A DNA stretch of 64,000 bases from a virus (lineage: Duplodnaviria > Heunggongvirae > Uroviricota > Caudoviricetes). The position numbers were made by a program, and so were the translations under genes. The notes below the pieces were generated by a model. That model did not search any database. It was given only the letters and a program-made list of their open reading frames with translations, and was not told the origin of the DNA. The stretch's first letter is position 1, and each line of letters opens with the position of its first letter. This document shows positions 934 through 62,448 of this stretch, piece by piece. The stretch lies in IMG/VR virus record IMGVR_UViG_2654587772_000002; one strand, given 5' to 3'.

Positions 934-1354
934 CCTGTGCGAGATTTATTACGTAACTTCTGCGGATTTGCTGAGTAACAGGGAAAATCCGATACAACGG
1001 GTTAATGAACGAGTCGCCATGCGTAACCATGACGTTGAAATGCCACAGTCGCTCTCCTTTACCCATATATTCAGTGGGTATGTACAACCATTCACTGTTT
1101 TCGCCCTGTTCAGCCGACGTCAGACAACGTTGTTCGCCTTCAATCACTGTCGTCGGCTTCTGAACATCGCGGATCCAATATCTGACCGTTGCGCCGCGCA
1201 AAAACGGGAATTTAGACCGGTATTTGAACGGCACCCGAATGAAACCCGGTTTAATTTCCACATCACCAAGTTCTAAATGCGTGATGTCCTTGCGTTTTAG
1301 CAAATAGCGATCGGCTAAGGCTAACGCAAGAACGCATACACCCCAGCCAATCAT
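911..1354 (-). CDS. Hypothetical protein with N-terminal hydrophobic segment
   Basis: 147-aa ORF, N-terminal GVCVLALALA hydrophobic stretch; overlaps neighbours by a few nt (operon-like). Confidence 0.4.
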   Translation of the reverse strand: MIGWGVCVLALALADRYLLKRKDITHLELGDVEIKPGFIRVPFKYRSKFPFLRGATVRYWIRDVQKPTTVIEGEQRCLTSAEQGENSEWLYIPTEYMGKGERLWHFNVMVTHGDSFINPLYRIFPVTQQIRRSYVINLAQDVSDDEK

Positions 1355-1680
1355 TTCCCACCTCCCTTTTTCACCAAACTTGTAAGAACATTCAGAATGC
1401 TATCGATATTCACTCGTTTCATCCCTGAAATCACCTCATGACCGTTATTGCTGGCTATCGTTACCATTAAGTACGTAATTGATAACTCCCAGCCTTCGTG
1501 TTGCCCCAATAGGTACGCCACCGCGCCAGCTGTCACTGCAACAAAGATCTCCGTAACCAATCCCAACAAGTTGCCAGACTGGCGACCATCTCGGACATCC
1601 ATCAGGAACGTGCCTATCCCACCAATTACTGAAAGCAGGAGCGCAATAGCAACTGGAGCTAATTCCTGTGTGTCAAGCAC
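1351..1680 (-). CDS. Small membrane protein, holin-like
   Basis: 109 aa, two to three predicted TM helices (LLSVIGGIGTFLM, IFVAVTAGAVAYLLG), charged C-terminus; topology typical of holins but family not confirmed. Confidence 0.4.
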   Translation of the reverse strand: MLDTQELAPVAIALLLSVIGGIGTFLMDVRDGRQSGNLLGLVTEIFVAVTAGAVAYLLGQHEGWELSITYLMVTIASNNGHEVISGMKRVNIDSILNVLTSLVKKGGGK

Positions 1681-1752
1681 AAGTTCCCTCCTACGTTGTC
1701 AGGAGGTAATGGTATGCAAAGTAACTTCTCAACCGGTCATGTTACTTGACAT

Positions 1753-1778
1753 CCTCCACGTCCTTTAGAGCGTGGAGG
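1753..1778. other. Perfect 8-bp stem / 10-nt loop hairpin immediately 5' of intron-like GTGCG
   Basis: cctccacg-tcctttagag-cgtggagg; 4 nt upstream of GTGCGCCC at 1783. Confidence 0.5.
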
Positions 1779-1782
1779 ATGT

Positions 1783-2640
1783 GTGCGCCCAGCATGGGCG
1801 CGATCTTGGAGGTGAAAGCCCTCCCGCGAGCTGACCACAGCGAGCGAAAGGAAGTGCAACTGCGTGAGGGCGGCTAGGCGTGGGGAGGAAGCACGGAATG
1901 AACCCGTGAGCCGATGAACAAGAATCGGATATGAGGCGCGATGGAGCAAGGCGAGCAGGCACATCACTGCGAAGCTTTCGTGACAAAGTCGCGTAGATCC
2001 GACGGTTGTGCGGGGAAGGATCGCGTTCTTACCTGGGGAGTTCTCGCCTCATGCCTGAAAGGGCAACGTCGTAAGACGGAGCGAGAAGTCAGCAGAGGCC
2101 GTAGTAGTCAGGACTCCGACGAAGGGCCGAACGAGAAGGAAAGCCAAAAGATATGACTCTTGACAGGACATTGCGTCAGAAGCCGGGGAAGCCCGGTACG
2201 GACCCGCATGCCGGGTGGTGTGGCAGGGGCGCAGCCTTGTGCTCCCCCCTATGCCGATCAAGCAGAACATTGTGCTGGGCCTCTGACGCATCTCCTTGAT
2301 GGTCTTGGCATCGTGCTTAAGTGGATTGGTGTCGTCTCTGATAGGCTCATGGAGGCAGAATGAAACTCAAAAATCCGGGACAGCACGCAAAACAGGCTGC
2401 ACAAAAAGCGCAGGTTGCGTAGGAGTGGAATCCCGCTCCCAAAAAATGGTGCAGAAGTTGCGGCAGTGGTCATCCGACGCACTGGAAAATAACAAACCCG
2501 CCGTGACCAGAATCGGAGGCCTGAGGGAGTGACCGTAAAACCGGATAACCCAGGCAGCAAATACCCGCTGGATGAGGCATGGTTCCGGCAGATAATACCG
2601 AAAACCGCCAGACACACTGGATAATCAGTAGAAATAACCC
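1783..2640 (+). ncRNA. Group II intron 5' fragment (ribozyme domains I-III plus decayed start of the RT/maturase ORF), truncated at the 3' side
   Basis: Begins GTGCGCCCAG as group II introns do; GC-rich, no long ORF on either strand; short frames near 2430-2640 read like RT N-terminal remnants (..NKPAVTRIGG.., ..RQIIPKTARH..); ends abruptly at AT-rich DNA. Confidence 0.45.
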
Positions 2641-2651
2641 ATTAAAATCAT

Positions 2652-2657
2652 TATAAT
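2652..2657 (+). promoter_or_regulatory. Candidate -10 element (TATAAT) for the acetyltransferase moron
   Basis: tataat about 22 nt upstream of ATG at 2679 in AT-rich leader; -35 is weak. Confidence 0.3.
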
Positions 2658-2678
2658 AATTGGGCACATTATTATATT

Positions 2679-3242
2679 ATGCTGAATAATAGAGACATGA
2701 ATATTAATGAACTTAAAGACTGTATTCACTATGAAGTAATCGGTAGCGAGCGTCCTTTCTCCTGGCGAAAGGCAATTGTTCGCGCAATAAAACATAGAAG
2801 AGTTCGTTATTTATTTTGGTGGCGCATAGCCAAATACCTTTTTGATAAAGGCGGATACTGTCGGAAGATTGCGGGGAAAATGGAACGTTTCATTCTTGAT
2901 AAATATAGTGTAACAGTCCCTTTAACTGTAAATATAGGGAAAGGCTTTGATATTTCTTATCTCAACGGTGTTGTTATCGGTCACAAAGTAACCATTGGTG
3001 AAAATTGTTCAATAAAACCAGGGGTAACTATTGGGCTACGTGGTGATTTTAATGATATGGATATTGTTATAGGACATAATGTGACCATTGGTTGTAATGC
3101 CACCATTCTTGGTGGCAAAGTGCGTATAGGAAACAATGTCACAATAGGTGCTCATGCATTGGTATTGCATGATATTCCTGATGATTCAACATTCATCACT
3201 AAATTTCAGTCTGAAGTTATCTGCTCGTCCTCTTGCACATAA
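2679..3242 (+). CDS. Hexapeptide-repeat (left-handed beta-helix) acetyltransferase; candidate surface-polysaccharide O-acetyltransferase moron
   Basis: Tandem [LIV]-G-x-x-x-x hexapeptide repeats ([53 protein letters not shown]); AT-rich; convergent with tfa, 3' ends overlap 37 nt. Confidence 0.75.
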
Positions 3243-3823
3243 CCCTGATTCATCAGCTCTGGCCATACGATATCCGGAGCTGTACTGGTGTCAATTCGAC
3301 TCACTAATACTCTGTATTTTCTCCAGGAATCCAGTTGTGAATTTTCCTCGGTTGTTGCTATTTCAAGATTAACTGCATCCTGCAGAATTGCGATGTTATC
3401 TGTTGCCTCCTGAATCAACCTTGCCTTTTTCTCTTCCGCTTCCCGTATCCGAAACAGTTTTTCTGCTTCCTCATCCTTCACCCAGGATACGCCGTCCCAC
3501 TTCTGATACTCCCCTGCTGGCGACAACCAGGTGACATTCTCTGGTAACGGTCCGAGTTCAGAAATAAACAACGCGTCCCCCGATGCCACGTCATAGACCG
3601 TTTTACCACGATGGTCTTCAACAATAATCCATGATTCATTTTCACTGTTAAAAACTGCCACAAAGCCAGCAGGAATTTCCGGTGGGGCGATATCTGTAGA
3701 ATTAGCTGGTAGCCCTGTATGAGGTGGAATATATGCGTCACCTTCACCAATAAACTCATTAGTTCCGGCGAGCAGGTTATAAATTTTTACAGTACGTGAT
3801 TGTTCACTCATTCTGAATGCCAT
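3206..3823 (-). CDS. tfa: Tail fibre assembly protein (lambda Tfa-like)
   Basis: N-terminus [48 protein letters not shown] matches lambda Tfa as recalled. Confidence 0.85.
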
Positions 3824-4713
3824 TATGCAAGCCTCACAATATAATTAAATGCGATGTTTTTAACGGTGTTTTCCGAGTTACCAGCAGCGTTAACGGTGAT
3901 GGTGTGTCCATGTGAACCAATCGCAACAGAGTGCGTATGAGCGCCAATATCAACTGTATGTGCATGCGCCCCTGCACTTGCAGCGGTGCCTGATACTGAG
4001 TGGGTGTGTGCACCAGAAGAAGGCACAGTTCCATTCCCCACCACAGTGCCGCTTGATGAGCCATCAAGCCAGTCGAAATTCATACCGCCACCATCTGGTC
4101 TCCTTAATGGAACGGTATGAGTATGTGCGCCAGCACTATTTGCAGTACCAGATACATTGTGGGTATGTGCACCTGTGTTATTCGTTGATTTAGTACCGTA
4201 ATCAAACGAAGATGTGGTTTTCGTACCCAAATCCGTATTGGATGCGCTGGCGCTGTGGGTGTGCGATTTAATGCCATCCTGTTCCAGAGACAATACGTCC
4301 CGACCACTGGCGGGTTTGCCCTTGATTGTCCAGCCACGCATATCCGGGATCACGCCTGACGGATAAGCGGCTGCAAGTTTCGGGTATGCAGATTTGTCAA
4401 AAGTCTGTCCCTGCATCAGGGCGTAACCAGACGGCACAGTATCTGATGGCCACGGATGCGGAACACCAACAGGAAGGACCTCAATATCCCCGGAACCATC
4501 AAACGAAACGTTATTAATTTTACGGGCTGTTTTCAGCTTTGTAGCCGTTGAGGCATTGCCGGACAGCTCACCAGAAATGCCACCAACAACTGTTAGATCA
4601 CCAGTTATTGTGCCGCCTGAACTTTCCAGTTTTTTAGCAACATCACTCTTAATAGAGTCGATTTCTTTTTTCAGATTAGTTATATCTGCTGGTATCGTTG
4701 TCACTGTTGCCAT
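3823..4713 (-). CDS. stf: Side tail fibre C-terminal module (lambda Stf-like) with its own start
   Basis: [52 protein letters not shown] ... GAHTH repeats ... [31 protein letters not shown] match lambda Stf C-terminus. Confidence 0.8.
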
Positions 4714-4722
4714 ATTAATTCC

Positions 4723-5001
4723 TTACGCCCATTCCCGCAGCGGTTGTTCTAATTGAACTTCAAAACCATCAAACATTTGTTGTTTCAAACTGTTGTTTAA
4801 AATACGAACATTAACGAAGAAGCCATCATTTTTAATCACTGTTGGTTCTTCGTTCTCGCCGTTTGGTATTTCGGTATATGTAACACCTACAACATCAAGA
4901 AGAATGTTGTTTTGCAGCTCTTCATTATCGTGCCAGGATATACTCTCTAAAAAAGAGTCGTATTCTGCCCTGTCTCTGAATTTCAACGTGATATCTTTCA
5001 T
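4723..5001 (-). CDS. Hypothetical protein; possible chaperone for the upstream fibre
   Basis: 92-aa ORF immediately downstream of the large fibre gene (1-nt stop/start overlap); no family recognised. Confidence 0.3.
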   Translation of the reverse strand: MKDITLKFRDRAEYDSFLESISWHDNEELQNNILLDVVGVTYTEIPNGENEEPTVIKNDGFFVNVRILNNSLKQQMFDGFEVQLEQPLREWA

Positions 5002-7901
5002 TAAATAACCTCAGCCATTTGTTGGTCTGTTAATGCTTTATGCCATATTCTGAAATTTCTGATATGACCAAATAAATGACGTAACCCTGCTGTAGTCTGG
5101 CCTCCAATACGGATGGTTGCAGAGTTCTGAATATAGGACCATGTCGTCTTTGTTTCGCTGGATATGCGCCCGTTACTTACTGAGCACGTAGACTGATCTG
5201 ATTTTACACGCATCCCCATAACCATTTTTTCAAGCAATGCGTTTTCGTTTACCCGTCTGTTAGCTCCTCCAATATCGCAATAAGGAAATCCGTCGTAATC
5301 TGCTGAAGAACCGAAGCCAAGAATAATAGCCGCTCCGGTTTGATGACCGCCGGTATCAAAAACACGTGGCGCTGCATTTGGCGTTTTATACCAGTTCTTA
5401 TGTACCTCACAAAGAACCGTAAAAGGAAGATTATAAAGATTATTATTAATTGGAACTGTAACTATATCGCTTGCGCGGGTAGCCGCCGTCGTTCCCGAGA
5501 TAATAAAAGATGATGCACACGAACCATCCTCAACCTGAGGGGTGGACAGATAAATATAGTCTCCAGATATGGTTGCTCCGCCCTGCTTAGGAGAATACTG
5601 TATCTGAGATCCTATTTTTAACTCATCATCAATTGCCTGGATTGTTGCCTCTGCAAAAATCCATCCGGTAGCTTCGTCCTTTCTGACTCTCGCTGTAATC
5701 CTTGAGGCCGCGCCACCTGTCATATTAATTTCAAGCGTTTGTGTATCAATATATGCATCACCAAGAAAAGTTGTTGCACTACCGTCATATTTATCAAAGC
5801 GGATACGTAACCTTACCTGTCGTTCTGTTTTAAAACGACATGAGGTTGTCACGTACTTGTTATCGCCTGAAACATCAACTGACTTTGTAGCAGCAATTGA
5901 TGCCATATTAATGGCTGACGTTTGCCCAATCAGAGAATCGTTACAGACAAACTTTCCATAGGTAAAACCAAAACTATCCGTCCCGGTTTCGGGAACATCC
6001 ATATTTGACGAGCGCCCCCAACTGGCAGGGTTTTCCGAATTGAGCATGTAGTTTGTTCGTTGTCCCTCAATAAGCAGACCATCACGTTCAAATCGTGGCT
6101 CGTCAATGGCAGCCTCTGTCAGCACACCAGATTTATTTATATAGGTTGCTTTCGATGCGCGTTTAAACTTAACAACCTTGTCGCCAGGCATTGTTATTTC
6201 GTCGTCGCCAATAACAATCTTTTTATATGATGGAGAAAAGCCCGCAATCATATCCAGCGAATCGTTAAACGGTATCCACACATCTGGCAGCGGTTGAATA
6301 ATCTTCCTGGCATCCTCCAGTGACAATGCTTCGACATCCGAAGCTGTTAAAGAAATATCTGCCGAACCGTCAAATGAAACGTTGTTAATCATCCGTGCTG
6401 TTTTTAATTTCGTTGCGGTGTCGGCGTTCCCCATCAGTGCGCCGGTGATCCCGCCGTTGAAAGTCTGGCGTGCACTCCATGTGTTAGCCGTGCTCAACAG
6501 GGGGATCTTTTCACCGCTTGTGCCGAGTTCTCTTAAACCAAGGTATTGGATAACAGCAAGGACGCTTGTTTTGGACAGAATATCGCGACCGACTGACGTT
6601 AAGTCAGTCTGAGAAACAGTGTCTGTACCGGTAAAGTACGGCAGTTTATTTGCGCCTGTAGCAAGACCAGCAAGCGCGGTTAAAGTTGCATCCAGAGGCT
6701 GTTTGCCTGCCAGCGCATTTGTCATTGTTGTCGCAAAGTTCGGGTCATTACCAAGTGCTGCGGCAAGCTCATTCAGGGTATCAAGAGCTTCTGGTGATGA
6801 ACCAACCAATGCGGATATGGCAGCTCTTACATAAGCAGTCGTAGCAATCTGCGTATTATTTGTGCCCTGCGCAGCCGTAGGCGCAGTAGGGACTCCCGTT
6901 AATGCAGGGCTTGCCAAAGGCGCTTTGAGGGCTAGGGCATTGTTGATAGTTGTGCTGAAATTCGGGTCGTTATTGATCGCAGCAGCTATTTCTTTAAGCG
7001 TATCCAGTGTGCCAGGTGCACCGTTGATAAGTGCCGTTATAGCTGACTTAACAAAGGCTGTATTTGCGATCTGCGTGCTATTTGTACCTTGCGCTGCCGT
7101 CGGCGCGGTTGGCGTTCCTGTCAGACTCGGGCTTTCTATTGGCGCTTTGGTATCAGCAAGACCTTTTACAGACTTAACGGCTTTAGGGGTAGCCGCCATT
7201 GTTTCGCTGTCGCTGTTAGTTTCGCTACTGAGCTGAACTAATCCCTTTTGCGTTGTGCTTGCATCCTGTGCCGTATACTTGCTTTTCGCCAGATCGTAGG
7301 CTTTTTTAGCTGCCAGCGAACTTGCAGCAACATCACTTCTGCTACTGGTTACAGAGTCTGAAATATCAATGCCGATCGTGCGGTTAATACGCTCGGATGT
7401 ATCAATCATCTCCTGGGTAATGGCTGATACGCCAGCAGGGATATTCACCGTACAAACAAGCAGCTCTCCATCTCCTAACTGATATGAATCGGTATAGGTT
7501 CTGGCAACAAATTCAGCCGCATGAATATGTGACGCGGTATTAACCTGATAGGTATCCTCTCCAAGGAGGTATCTTCCCTTCAGCACAATTGCATATTTCT
7601 TGCCTTCACTAAGTGCAAGAGAAATATCCTTACGGTGCCGAATAGTTACCTGGTAGAATTCACCAATATCCACTGACGCAGCGCCAGCAGTTTTATCACC
7701 ATCCACTGAGGTGATTAACAGGTTCATACCACCGCCAGGCTTCGGCAGGAAACCGGCATAAAACCCAGGATCAACAATTCCCCTGAATTTTCGGTTTAGC
7801 GCGGCTGACAGATATGGTTCGTGGTATTGCACATCAGCCACCAGAGCCAGTGACTCGGGCGATGGGTAAGTAACTGATGTAACAACTGTAACGTCATTCA
7901 T
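5001..7901 (-). CDS. Tail fibre protein with Stf-type collagen-like repeats and a distinct C-terminal (lectin/LamG-like?) receptor-binding domain
   Basis: Repeated PL(A/D)SPxLTG(T/V)PTAPTAAQGTNxTQIA(N/T)TA(F/Y)V units and GLVQLSSETNSDSETMAATPKAVK as in lambda Stf; start set at internal ATG (MNDVTVV) just after the upstream stop; ORF-track start 7988 overlaps the previous gene. Confidence 0.8.
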   Translation of the reverse strand: MNDVTVVTSVTYPSPESLALVADVQYHEPYLSAALNRKFRGIVDPGFYAGFLPKPGGGMNLLITSVDGDKTAGAASVDIGEFYQVTIRHRKDISLALSEGKKYAIVLKGRYLLGEDTYQVNTASHIHAAEFVARTYTDSYQLGDGELLVCTVNIPAGVSAITQEMIDTSERINRTIGIDISDSVTSSRSDVAASSLAAKKAYDLAKSKYTAQDASTTQKGLVQLSSETNSDSETMAATPKAVKSVKGLADTKAPIESPSLTGTPTAPTAAQGTNSTQIANTAFVKSAITALINGAPGTLDTLKEIAAAINNDPNFSTTINNALALKAPLASPALTGVPTAPTAAQGTNNTQIATTAYVRAAISALVGSSPEALDTLNELAAALGNDPNFATTMTNALAGKQPLDATLTALAGLATGANKLPYFTGTDTVSQTDLTSVGRDILSKTSVLAVIQYLGLRELGTSGEKIPLLSTANTWSARQTFNGGITGALMGNADTATKLKTARMINNVSFDGSADISLTASDVEALSLEDARKIIQPLPDVWIPFNDSLDMIAGFSPSYKKIVIGDDEITMPGDKVVKFKRASKATYINKSGVLTEAAIDEPRFERDGLLIEGQRTNYMLNSENPASWGRSSNMDVPETGTDSFGFTYGKFVCNDSLIGQTSAINMASIAATKSVDVSGDNKYVTTSCRFKTERQVRLRIRFDKYDGSATTFLGDAYIDTQTLEINMTGGAASRITARVRKDEATGWIFAEATIQAIDDELKIGSQIQYSPKQGGATISGDYIYLSTPQVEDGSCASSFIISGTTAATRASDIVTVPINNNLYNLPFTVLCEVHKNWYKTPNAAPRVFDTGGHQTGAAIILGFGSSADYDGFPYCDIGGANRRVNENALLEKMVMGMRVKSDQSTCSVSNGRISSETKTTWSYIQNSATIRIGGQTTAGLRHLFGHIRNFRIWHKALTDQQMAEVI

Positions 7902-7912
7902 CAAGCATATCC

Positions 7913-8347
7913 TTATGCTATAGTCGTGTTGATGGCCATAACTGCGGTATATGTTTTTCCCACATACAGCGAGTCTTCCTGAACACAAATAATTGCGATG
8001 GGCTTATTCTCGTTATCCAGAACAACCAGAGTGTTGAATGGATAGTTTTTCCCTTCCTGCAACTGGCTTTGATCAAGGTCCATTCGGACAGTAATTATCC
8101 CGCCAGAGTAGGTTGGGACGAGGTTGATGGTGCAAAATTGACTGGTCAGTTCTGCCAACTCGAAAGTCTTTGGCAGTTCTCCAATGTCATAAGTACCATC
8201 TTCATTTTTGGTAACCAGCGAACTGGTGCCGAAAACGGCCTTGCTGATTAAAAATCGAGAGCCTTTGTTAATGGACGATTCAGCGCGTCGCTGATAGTAA
8301 TAATCCAACAACTGACTCTTATAGAGATTTGTTGAGACGTCAGACAT
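7913..8347 (-). CDS. Hypothetical virion-associated protein
   Basis: 144-aa ORF in co-directional operon immediately upstream of the tail fibre. Confidence 0.4.
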   Translation of the reverse strand: MSDVSTNLYKSQLLDYYYQRRAESSINKGSRFLISKAVFGTSSLVTKNEDGTYDIGELPKTFELAELTSQFCTINLVPTYSGGIITVRMDLDQSQLQEGKNYPFNTLVVLDNENKPIAIICVQEDSLYVGKTYTAVMAINTTIA

Positions 8348-8425
8348 GATTTTCCCTAATCAATGTTGTGAAGCCTCATTGTAAGAGAAGTAACTTGTCA
8401 CCCCGCCCTGCGGACGGGGTAATTG

Positions 8426-43745: not shown

Positions 43746-44332
43746 TTTTCCTCACATATGTCATATAGTAAAGGATTATATATACCGTTGTTTTGGACGC
43801 TCAAACAGCGAATCAGATCAAATAAAACGCACATTTGTTAACATTTACACAAAGTCTGCGTGGGATATTCTGAAAGAATATCCATAATGTGGAGAGAATC
43901 TATTGAAGTGCATGGTGCCGGGTGCCTCCCGGTGAACAAAATGTTCGTGATACCTGTCGGCGACAGAAAAGGTTAATGGTATCACCCCACCGCACAGGGG
44001 GATTCACCATGCAGGAGTTTTCTTAGCAAACTCACTGCGCGCCCGGCAACTCCCAACCACATAAAATGCGGAGTTTGTGGTATTTATGCATATAACTCGC
44101 AGGAATTATCTTAAAAAACTGATGTCGATCCGGATTAAAAAGAAGCAGGTCATCATCAGATGACTGGAAAAAAGGAAAACAAAAAATACTCATCATACAG
44201 TTTTGATTGCAGGGATGAGCCTGCTATGCACAATATGCAGAATATAAGCAAGATAAAAATATGCAGGCATATTATTTCGGATTTTGTTATTAACACAACC
44301 TTTTTAATAATCATTTGGCATACAATAAACCA

Positions 44333-62072: not shown

Positions 62073-62267
62073 ATGCGGTATGAAAAAGTCAAACCATGCC
62101 CTTTTTGTGGTTGTCTATCAGTAACGGTAAAAGCCATTTCAGGATATTACCGCGCGAAGTGTAACGGATGCGAATCCCGAACCGGCTATGGTGGAAGTGA
62201 AAAAGAAGCACTCGAACGATGGAATAAACGAACCACTGGAAATAATAATGGAGGTGTTCATGTATAA
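62073..62267 (+). CDS. ralR: Restriction alleviation protein Lar/RalR
   Basis: 64 aa, MRY..VKPCPFCGC.SVTVKAISGYYRAKCNGCESRTGYGGSEKEALERWNKRT Cys4 motif. Confidence 0.8.
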   Translation: MRYEKVKPCPFCGCLSVTVKAISGYYRAKCNGCESRTGYGGSEKEALERWNKRTTGNNNGGVHV

Positions 62268-62448
62268 AATTACCGCCACTATTGAAAAGGAAGGTGGCAC
62301 TCCTACTAACTGGACAAGGTACTCAAAAACAAAATTAACCAAATCAGAATGCGAAAAAATGCTCTCAGGTAAAAAAGAAGCAGGCGGTTCCAGAGAGCAG
62401 AAAGTAAAACTGATAAATTTTAATTGCGAGAAACTTCAGTCGTCGTGA
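62260..62448 (+). CDS. ydaC: YdaC-like small protein
   Basis: 62-aa ORF from ATG at 62260 overlapping ralR 3' end. Confidence 0.45.
   Translation: MYKITATIEKEGGTPTNWTRYSKTKLTKSECEKMLSGKKEAGGSREQKVKLINFNCEKLQSS

Follow-up and report, generated by a model that had tools for sequence, protein, structure and literature searches.

Replaced catalytic residues in an acetyltransferase-like gene carried with the tail-fibre genes of P1-like phage-plasmids

Introduction

Why should a P1-like phage carry, at the end of its tail-fibre genes, a gene that is annotated as a serine acetyltransferase, and what could the product do in the lysogen? Prophage-borne acetyltransferases that alter the surface polysaccharide of the lysogen include Sf6 Oac and CUS-3 NeuO, the latter a hexapeptide-repeat protein. 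An earlier note on the DNA studied here had proposed a similar, lysogenic-conversion role for the gene. We analysed the gene within the window, by which we mean the whole 64-kb stretch of viral DNA, and compared it with homologous loci in genomes and viral contigs. As the catalytic histidine and aspartate of the family have been lost and strong selection has been kept, we suggest that the gene is probably an accessory one that modifies the host, rather than one for a serine acetyltransferase.

Results

The gene lies in the place of the invertible C segment of P1 and P7

The first 15 kb of the window form a P1-type (Punavirus) segment, with darA, hdf, lydB and lydA (1351..1680) in this order before the acetyltransferase-like gene, and the tail-fibre gene S, R, gene 16, the baseplate genes and sit after the gene region. 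In P7 and P1, lydA is separated from the constant part of S by lydC, cin, cixL and the invertible C segment (Sv′, U′ / U, Sv), which is inverted with Cin for host-range switching. The window shares this genomic place and retains a cixR crossover site (Table 1), but differs from both phages in having no cin, lydC, cixL, Sv′ or U′. Instead of lydC, cin, Sv′ and U′, there is a piece of a group II intron with unrelated scraps, together with the acetyltransferase-like gene, which is itself missing from P1 and P7. Meaningful inverted repeats are absent from positions 1300-8400, and the whole 64-kb window has neither a second cix site nor a cin-like gene, which together rule out a segment that is still invertible. 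The cixR site is a remnant of a C segment that has had its other half, with cin, cixL, Sv′ and U′, replaced, and where P1 and P7 invert, the window has a single fixed fibre tip, tfa and the acetyltransferase-like gene. The same replacement has been noticed in JL22, a P1-like phage-plasmid, where the reason for the serine acetyltransferase gene was said to be "still unknown" (PMC9603915).

Among 5426 complete E. coli genomes, the gene is carried by 192 (~3.5%), with 58 plasmid places and 166 chromosomal ones. The exact fibre arrangement of the window is found in no complete E. coli genome of this collection.

Table 1. Features of the acetyltransferase-like gene region; positions are those of the window
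Feature	Position	Strand	Basis or remark
Truncated 5′ group II intron piece and unrelated scraps	1744-2608		In place of the lydC/cin/Sv′/U′ region
Leader of the acetyltransferase-like gene	2609..2696	+	Upstream edge of the mobile cassette; GC 28%
Sigma-70-like promoter, TAGAAA-17-TATAAT	2629-2657	+	-35 TAGAAA 2629-2634; -10 TATAAT 2652-2657
Acetyltransferase-like CDS, 181 aa	2697..3242	+	Pfam, NCBIfam, AF2 fold; PGAP start in identical copies
tfa, tail fibre assembly, 205 aa	3206..3823	-	Pfam Caudo_TAP E 2.3e-39; phrog_105 E 8.5e-94
T4-gp37-like tail-fibre tip ORF, 296 aa	3823..4713	-	Pfam Collar, Phage_fiber
Orphan cixR crossover site	6529..6551	.	Exact P7 cixR match inside S; 0 chance matches expected

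The gene is AT-rich and has a conserved promoter-like site

The six-frame list of open reading frames gives a plus-strand frame at 2679..3242, which reads as 187 aa from ATG 2679. This ATG is not conserved in a variant with 83% DNA identity, while ATG 2697 is kept there and is also the start chosen by PGAP in identical copies. Because ATG 2679 is missing from the divergent copies, ATG 2697 is most likely the start, which would give a protein of 181 aa. All residue numbers below (Thr79, Tyr94, Pro114, Asp128 etc.) follow the 187-aa reading. The frame has a GC content of 37.5% and a GC3 of 29%, compared with 45% in tfa and 46.5% in the window, and only 7.6% of the 546-nt intervals across the whole window are equally AT-rich, in agreement with the AT-richness that the earlier note had described.

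That note had also given the gene its own promoter-like leader, and the comparison of variants supports this part as well. The number of sigma-70-like sites that a promoter scan finds in the region is, taken alone, no higher than chance; in the variants with 95% and 83% DNA identity, both hexamers of the putative promoter and the 17-nt spacer between them are kept while the flanks differ, and further upstream the sequences of the diverged copies are unrelated. No intrinsic terminator was found after the gene, whose 3′ end runs into tfa. Tandem repeats, which had been suggested as a possible 5′ switch, are absent from positions 1600-3900 by Tandem Repeats Finder, in the gene as well as before it, so that nothing points to phase variation. 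The gene is convergent with tfa, and the 37-nt overlap of their 3′ ends reported before is exact in the window (3206..3242), but it is not a conserved feature, as the stop codons are 11 nt apart in the 83% variant.

Promoter, gene, tfa and fibre tip move as a 2 kb unit

The fibre tip that follows tfa belongs to the T4 gp37 / lambda Stf type; over 215 aa, it is 64.7% identical to the C-terminus of T4 gp37. In the window, its frame is separated from the main S gene. To find the limits of the cassette, the first 9 kb of the window were aligned to the fetched loci. In P1-like elements, homology to the window runs from darA onward. In P2-type prophages (recognized by gpU, the tape measure, gpI and gpJ), homology starts sharply at 2609 or 2622, takes in the gene and tfa along with the final ~250 fibre-gene codons, and ends at ~4455-4585; these limits indicate that the putative promoter, the gene, tfa and the tip move together as a 2 kb unit. 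The parts of the cassette have diverged jointly, and the gene order is unchanged in the 83% variant.

Among the 40 loci whose gene has tyrosine at position 94 (Tyr-type, described below), tfa is directly convergent with the acetyltransferase-like gene in 39. Two of the 40 depart from the intact gene-plus-tfa arrangement: in L116, tfa is cut by an insertion sequence, and in L122, homology stops within the acetyltransferase-like gene. More distant relatives (33-48% identity) are also convergent to tfa in many prophages, some of them at P2 moron position 2, which is flanked by G (tfa) and the sheath gene. The Tfa HMM was built from one Tfa family, and the loci of the type with histidine at position 94 (His-type) that were scored as having no tfa nearby may under-count the linkage. 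The P1-like phage Ro157c2YLVW has a family member of 34% identity at the same place. With its low GC content, conserved promoter-like site, orientation towards tfa and presence or absence among otherwise similar P1-like elements, the gene behaves as the moron that the earlier note took it to be.

Fibre tips that are 80% identical are also found with other cargo, namely YbcY in phage PhiR29_2 and host sit genes in SPF_0923, and two divergent Tyr-type genes, P0014 (53% identity) and P0009 (69%), lie outside prophages and not beside tail-fibre genes. These cases weaken an obligatory tie of the gene to this fibre tip and suggest that the fibre linkage may be hitch-hiking, so that co-transfer of the gene with the tip may be simple linkage and not shared function.

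The protein has a serine acetyltransferase-like fold

Pfam gives only hexapeptide and β-helix matches for the protein (Hexapep E 6.6e-13, Hexapep_2 and LbH_EIF2B), with no match to SATase_N (PF06426) and no PF01757 Acyl_transf_3 domain. An AF2 model from a 101-sequence alignment reached a pLDDT of 92 and a pTM of 0.86, and superseded an earlier run with an 11-sequence alignment (pLDDT 67). In this model, four N-terminal helices are followed by a β-helix with short strands throughout residues 77-170, suggesting a soluble helical and β-helix protein. The Hexapep match and the predicted fold thus bear out the left-handed β-helix and the acetyltransferase family that had been assigned to the gene. 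In a Foldseek search of the PDB, 50 of 50 among the matches listed are serine acetyltransferases, with TM-scores of ~0.7 (query-normalised), and a sequence search of the PDB agrees that the closest solved structures are CysE enzymes. Nothing close was found by Foldseek among viral structures.

The best NCBIfam match is EpsC with 85.5 bits (cut-off 150), together with the CysE models TIGR01172 (74.2 vs 210.65 bits) and PRK11132 (46.1 vs 397 bits) and with WcaB, for which 59.4 bits compare with cut-offs of 194.65 (TIGR04016) and 196 (PRK10191). WbbJ (39 bits), LacA (31) and MAT (30) are far under their cut-offs and weaker than the CysE-type matches, and matches to the Vat/CatB xenobiotic acetyltransferases are also weak, much below EpsC, CysE and WcaB. 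In sequence and predicted fold, the protein is nearest to the CysE/EpsC/WcaB type instead of the NeuO/WbbJ/LacA branch that the earlier note had considered. Among PHROGs it matches only phrog_2154, of "unknown function", and PADLOC returned no match to a defence system.

CysE (EC 2.3.1.30) has the same overall fold, an N-terminal helical bundle and then a left-handed β-helix, but the protein studied here is ~90 residues shorter, has no SATase_N match and lacks the C-terminal Ile tail by which CysE binds CysK, ending in ...CSSSCT. WcaB (colanic acid) and EpsC, which give the best NCBIfam matches along with CysE, are of similar size (~160-190 aa). They presumably keep the catalytic histidine that the Tyr-type proteins lack.

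The active site is replaced in a narrow clade

In CysE, His158 is the general base and is supported by Asp143, and the serine pocket is lined by Asp92, Asp157, Gln178, Arg192 and His193 (PMC9547175). The motif IGxGxxIxH gives a gap-free alignment between the protein and CysE, in which Asp143 corresponds to Thr79, Asp157 to Ser93, His158 to Tyr94, Gln178 to Pro114, Arg192 to Met127 and His193 to Asp128. The closest solved homologues are the housekeeping enzymes that the earlier note had held against its own proposal, but the protein has not kept the residues that serve them in substrate binding and catalysis, which excludes a housekeeping CysE role. Judged by these residues, the database label "serine acetyltransferase" is wrong.

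The replacements separate the homologues, which were fetched from genomes and viral contigs, into two types. Position 94 is His in all 97 homologues with ≤48% identity and Tyr in all 40 with ≥89% identity. In the 95 nearest non-redundant His-type sequences, every one of which has His94, position 79 is always Asp or Glu (95/95), with Gln (85 sequences) or His (10) at position 114. The nine diverse Tyr-type sequences compared, with identities down to 53%, all have Tyr94; their position 79 is Thr, Lys or Val, Pro114 is present in eight, and position 128, which aligns with CysE His193, is Asp in eight and His in the ninth. A HMMER scan of 1.84 billion cluster representatives gave only four matches with E <= 1e-30, and the best 143 other representatives have His in 139 and Tyr in none. 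The absence of Tyr from these 143 shows that the Tyr clade is narrow and unique, and the residue is confined to the clade of the query, with 53-100% identity.

The positions that are conserved in the Tyr clade with residues rare in the His clade (79, 81, 94, 114, 121, 127, 128 and 136) are largely those of the CysE active site (D143, H145, H158, Q178, T185, R192, H193 and M201). Positions aligned with the CoA-contacting residues of CysE show no difference between the Tyr type and the His type. This pattern of substitution indicates that the pocket of the Tyr clade was remodelled and has since been kept unchanged. For the two main DNA variants, dN/dS is 0.07 (dS ~0.7, dN ~0.05), and the Tyr clade is under strong purifying selection and not decaying.

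As the Asp/His pair of the family and the residue equivalent to Gln178 are all replaced, even acetyl transfer is not assured, and catalysis may be lost or changed in the Tyr clade. In mutational work on Haemophilus CysE, the histidine equivalent to His193 can reportedly serve as a weak back-up base. By analogy, Asp128 may be a replacement base, which we regard as a lead and not as a result.

Some His-type relatives adjoin glycan genes

We found no tested function for any member of the family in the literature. Some His-type relatives have GT2, GT17-like or Wzy_C genes as neighbours, as seen in five species (Proteus mirabilis, two Pseudocitrobacter species, Buttiauxella and Leminorella). The Proteus ones are situated between a genuine cysE, whose product matches SATase_N, and trmL. 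Some relatives adjoin mug, some family members stand alone on conjugative plasmids of the IncK2/Z and IncF types, and on chromosomes most relatives are single genes with unrelated neighbours. The query gene itself is in a prophage tail-fibre region and not in a polysaccharide biosynthesis cluster. What points to the O-acetylation of surface polysaccharides, as had been proposed, is the position of some His-type relatives next to glycosyltransferase or Wzy-like genes; this gives modest support to a surface-glycan role in the family at large, but no support that is specific to the Tyr clade.

Discussion

The explanation that we favour, although tentatively, is that the protein has a re-wired active site, with which it acylates an envelope-glycan precursor. 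The gene rides as a moron at the end of a host-range cassette of tail-fibre genes, made up of the fibre tip, tfa and then the gene, and in P1-like phage-plasmids this cassette has taken the place of cin and of one half of the invertible C segment. Its own sigma-70 promoter would drive it antisense to the late tail-fibre operon, and because of this antisense orientation it is presumably expressed in the lysogen. The product would be a soluble, probably trimeric, left-handed β-helix protein with the CysE/WcaB fold, which would use acetyl-CoA as the donor and, on the cytoplasmic side, acylate a sugar of an envelope glycan (LPS core, O-unit, ECA or a colanic-acid precursor). In the re-wired site, Tyr94 and Asp128, the latter at the position of CysE His193 beside the substrate nucleophile, would take the place of the Asp/His pair and Gln. 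The outcome would be an altered cell surface as it is met by phages and by the host immune system.

Loss of catalysis is the reading that we rank second, and we consider it less likely, though plausible. The protein would then be a pseudoenzyme that retains the β-helix scaffold and the CoA groove and works by binding, either to a nucleotide-sugar, a lipid-linked intermediate or acetyl-CoA/CoA, or to a host enzyme, or a part of the machinery that makes receptors or polysaccharides, which it would block. The Asp/Glu, His and Gln of the nearest relatives, where they vary little or not at all, have all been replaced, and the replacements are themselves conserved under strong purifying selection, as is typical of a re-used scaffold. 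Against this, the Tyr clade has a candidate new base at position 128, aligned with CysE His193 beside the nucleophile, and its CoA-contact positions are like those of the His-type clade. Ranked third, and rather unlikely, is an acyltransferase for an acceptor other than a glycan (an antibiotic, a toxin, a signalling nucleotide, an amino compound or a protein), with a benefit unrelated to phage receptors. An amine acceptor needs no general base, as is established for some β-helix N-acetyltransferases, and such an acceptor would let the protein dispense with one; the solitary family genes on IncK2/Z and IncF plasmids, the single-gene islands with unrelated neighbours and the weak Vat/CatB matches would also fit. 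However, EpsC, CysE and WcaB are matched far better than Vat/CatB, there is no match to a known defence system, and some relatives are in glycan gene clusters.

Two further explanations are contradicted, a serine acetyltransferase role by the residue data and a functionless remnant by the selection. A decaying hitch-hiker that persists only through its linkage to the tail-fibre cassette would suit the degenerate state of the P1-derived segment, with its orphan cixR, intron fragment and split fibre gene, and the missing catalytic residues; we consider it very unlikely, given a dN/dS of 0.07 over a dS of ~0.7, only 2 of 40 Tyr-type loci that are not intact, and a Tyr clade that is conserved down to 53% identity, including genes outside prophages. 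Least probable, to the point of being scarcely credible, is a true serine O-acetyltransferase that raises cysteine synthesis or O-acetylserine signalling in the lysogen. Both the name given by PGAP and the phage records and the CysE enzymes among solved structures speak for it, but the CysE models score far too low (TIGR01172 74 vs 211 bits, PRK11132 46 vs 397 bits), SATase_N and the C-terminal Ile tail for CysK are missing, and Asp143, Asp157, His158, Gln178, Arg192 and His193 have become Thr, Ser, Tyr, Pro, Met and Asp.

A bolder proposal, which we regard as improbable, is that the Tyr clade is a new phage-borne class of β-helix proteins, either acyltransferases with a general base shifted to the adjacent loop (Asp128 with Tyr94) or non-catalytic binders, that has been selected for altering or masking the envelope receptor of the linked T4-gp37-type tip. 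If this were true, the lysogen would exclude phages with that tip, and released virions would be spared from sticking to debris.

The presence of the gene was already known from databases and from one paper (PMC9603915). What appears to be new is that its "serine acetyltransferase" label is wrong, that it belongs to a fibre-tip cassette and that its catalytic residues have been replaced under strong selection. Its carriers include P1-like phage-plasmids that also spread resistance genes. If the favoured acyl transfer to an envelope glycan takes place, the serotype and phage susceptibility of these carriers, and possibly their immune recognition, would change, and a soluble β-helix enzyme would join the known receptor-modifying genes that have receptor-binding genes as neighbours. 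That strong selection has continued after the Asp/His pair was lost also offers a natural experiment on how β-helix acyltransferases work, or are re-used, without the canonical base.

In comparison with known systems, the protein falls outside CysE, WcaB/EpsC, the NeuO/LacA branch and the AT3 family. Among the AT3 enzymes, Oac is an integral membrane protein, whereas the query has no PF01757 domain; NeuO, from the LacA/NodL/MAT branch, undergoes phase variation by 5′ heptanucleotide repeats, whereas the query has weak matches to this branch and no repeats. By analogy, the gene nevertheless resembles the lysogenic-conversion acetyltransferases, and it resembles NeaT in position and evolutionary pattern. 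In the P2-like prophage of E. coli CFT073, NeaT is an acyltransferase in the slot after tfa and in the same orientation (PMC3573123). Like the query, neaT has a low GC content, occupies P2 moron position 2, is transcribed against the tail genes, and is scattered among phages and islands with alleles that vary greatly (PMC3573123). NeaT is a membrane acyltransferase (PF01757, Acyl_transf_3) and the query a soluble β-helix protein, and as the two folds are unrelated, NeaT is an analogue and not a homologue. The varied cargo found at this position (YbcY, sit genes and NeaT) suggests that it is a general moron slot, and His-type relatives of the query occupy exactly the NeaT slot, beside the sheath gene.

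The fibre region and the remnant of its invertible segment

The fibre gene at 3823-7988 is a mosaic. The S tail-fibre gene ends in one tip, and the T4-gp37-like tip ORF forms with the tail fibre assembly gene, tfa, a separate unit downstream of S and the 92-aa ORF (table). This exact arrangement was absent from every complete genome in the collection searched. Strain ST2747 is 100% identical but lacks 4933-6519, and each end of the deletion falls at CTCT(A/T)AAA, a sequence similar to a cix half-site.

Features of the window and of related loci
Feature	Source	Coordinates	Strand	Remarks
Non-coding filler	window	1744-2608		GC-rich (57%); occupies P1/P7 place of lydC and cin
Group II intron 5' piece	window	~1755-2196	+	Rfam matches 1864-2028 and 2046-2127
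T4-gp37-like tip ORF	window	3823-4713		
92-aa ORF	window	4723-5001		phrog_1361; comes after S
S tail-fibre gene	window	5001-7988		995 aa; ends in different tip (phrog_1419)
cixR crossover site	window	6529-6551		exact P7-type; within S
STnc100 sRNA	window	43856-44042	-	above Rfam threshold
RalA antitoxin sRNA	window	62266-62444	-	above Rfam threshold
Invertase, intact	L026	10138-10686		near another family member and a tfa gene
cin-like invertase, N-terminal fragment	L134	7531-7767		92% identity; directly upstream of His-type family member
YbcY-like gene	L167 (phage PhiR29_2)	4278-4946		same convergent slot after tfa

In the 64-kb window, neither a partner for the cixR site nor a cin-like invertase was found, and the host-range inversion switch is therefore frozen. 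Elsewhere, the invertase fragment in L134 and the intact invertase in L026 show that members of the acetyltransferase-like family repeatedly lie next to tail-fibre segments that can invert, or to what is left of them. The cargo in the slot after tfa differs between phages, and the fibre tip adjoining the YbcY-like gene of PhiR29_2 is 80% identical to that of the window.

The filler upstream of the acetyltransferase-like gene includes a group II intron truncated to its 5'-terminal 450 nt, which are 96% identical to ltrA-carrying copies; the piece lacks both a reverse transcriptase and domain V/VI. Further along, 2263-2456 is ~80% similar to a portion of a tape-measure gene. Most of the filler (at least 80%) is common to only 30 E. 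coli genomes, compared to 192 with the acetyltransferase-like gene.

Taken with lambdoid tail genes located farther into the sequence, the two sRNAs identify the window as a chromosomal composite that combines a P1-derived segment with a Rac-like prophage, as strain ST2747 does.

Relatives in Proteus and on plasmids

Relatives of the His type, which keep the catalytic His where the window's clade has Tyr94, are found at 36-38% identity in loci of Proteus species (L010-L013, L016, L018, L024, L025, and L061), directly downstream of a genuine 277-aa cysE and followed by trmL, or else by GT2 or other genes. This site may mark the border of the O-antigen region in Proteus. A solitary His-type relative (~37-39% identity) is also carried by several hundred conjugative plasmids, and thus the family is common on several kinds of mobile element. 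The carriers include E. coli IncF and IncK2/Z plasmids (L165, L166); in the IncK2/Z example, the gene has the yacAB toxin-antitoxin genes on one side and a ProQ/FinO gene on the other.
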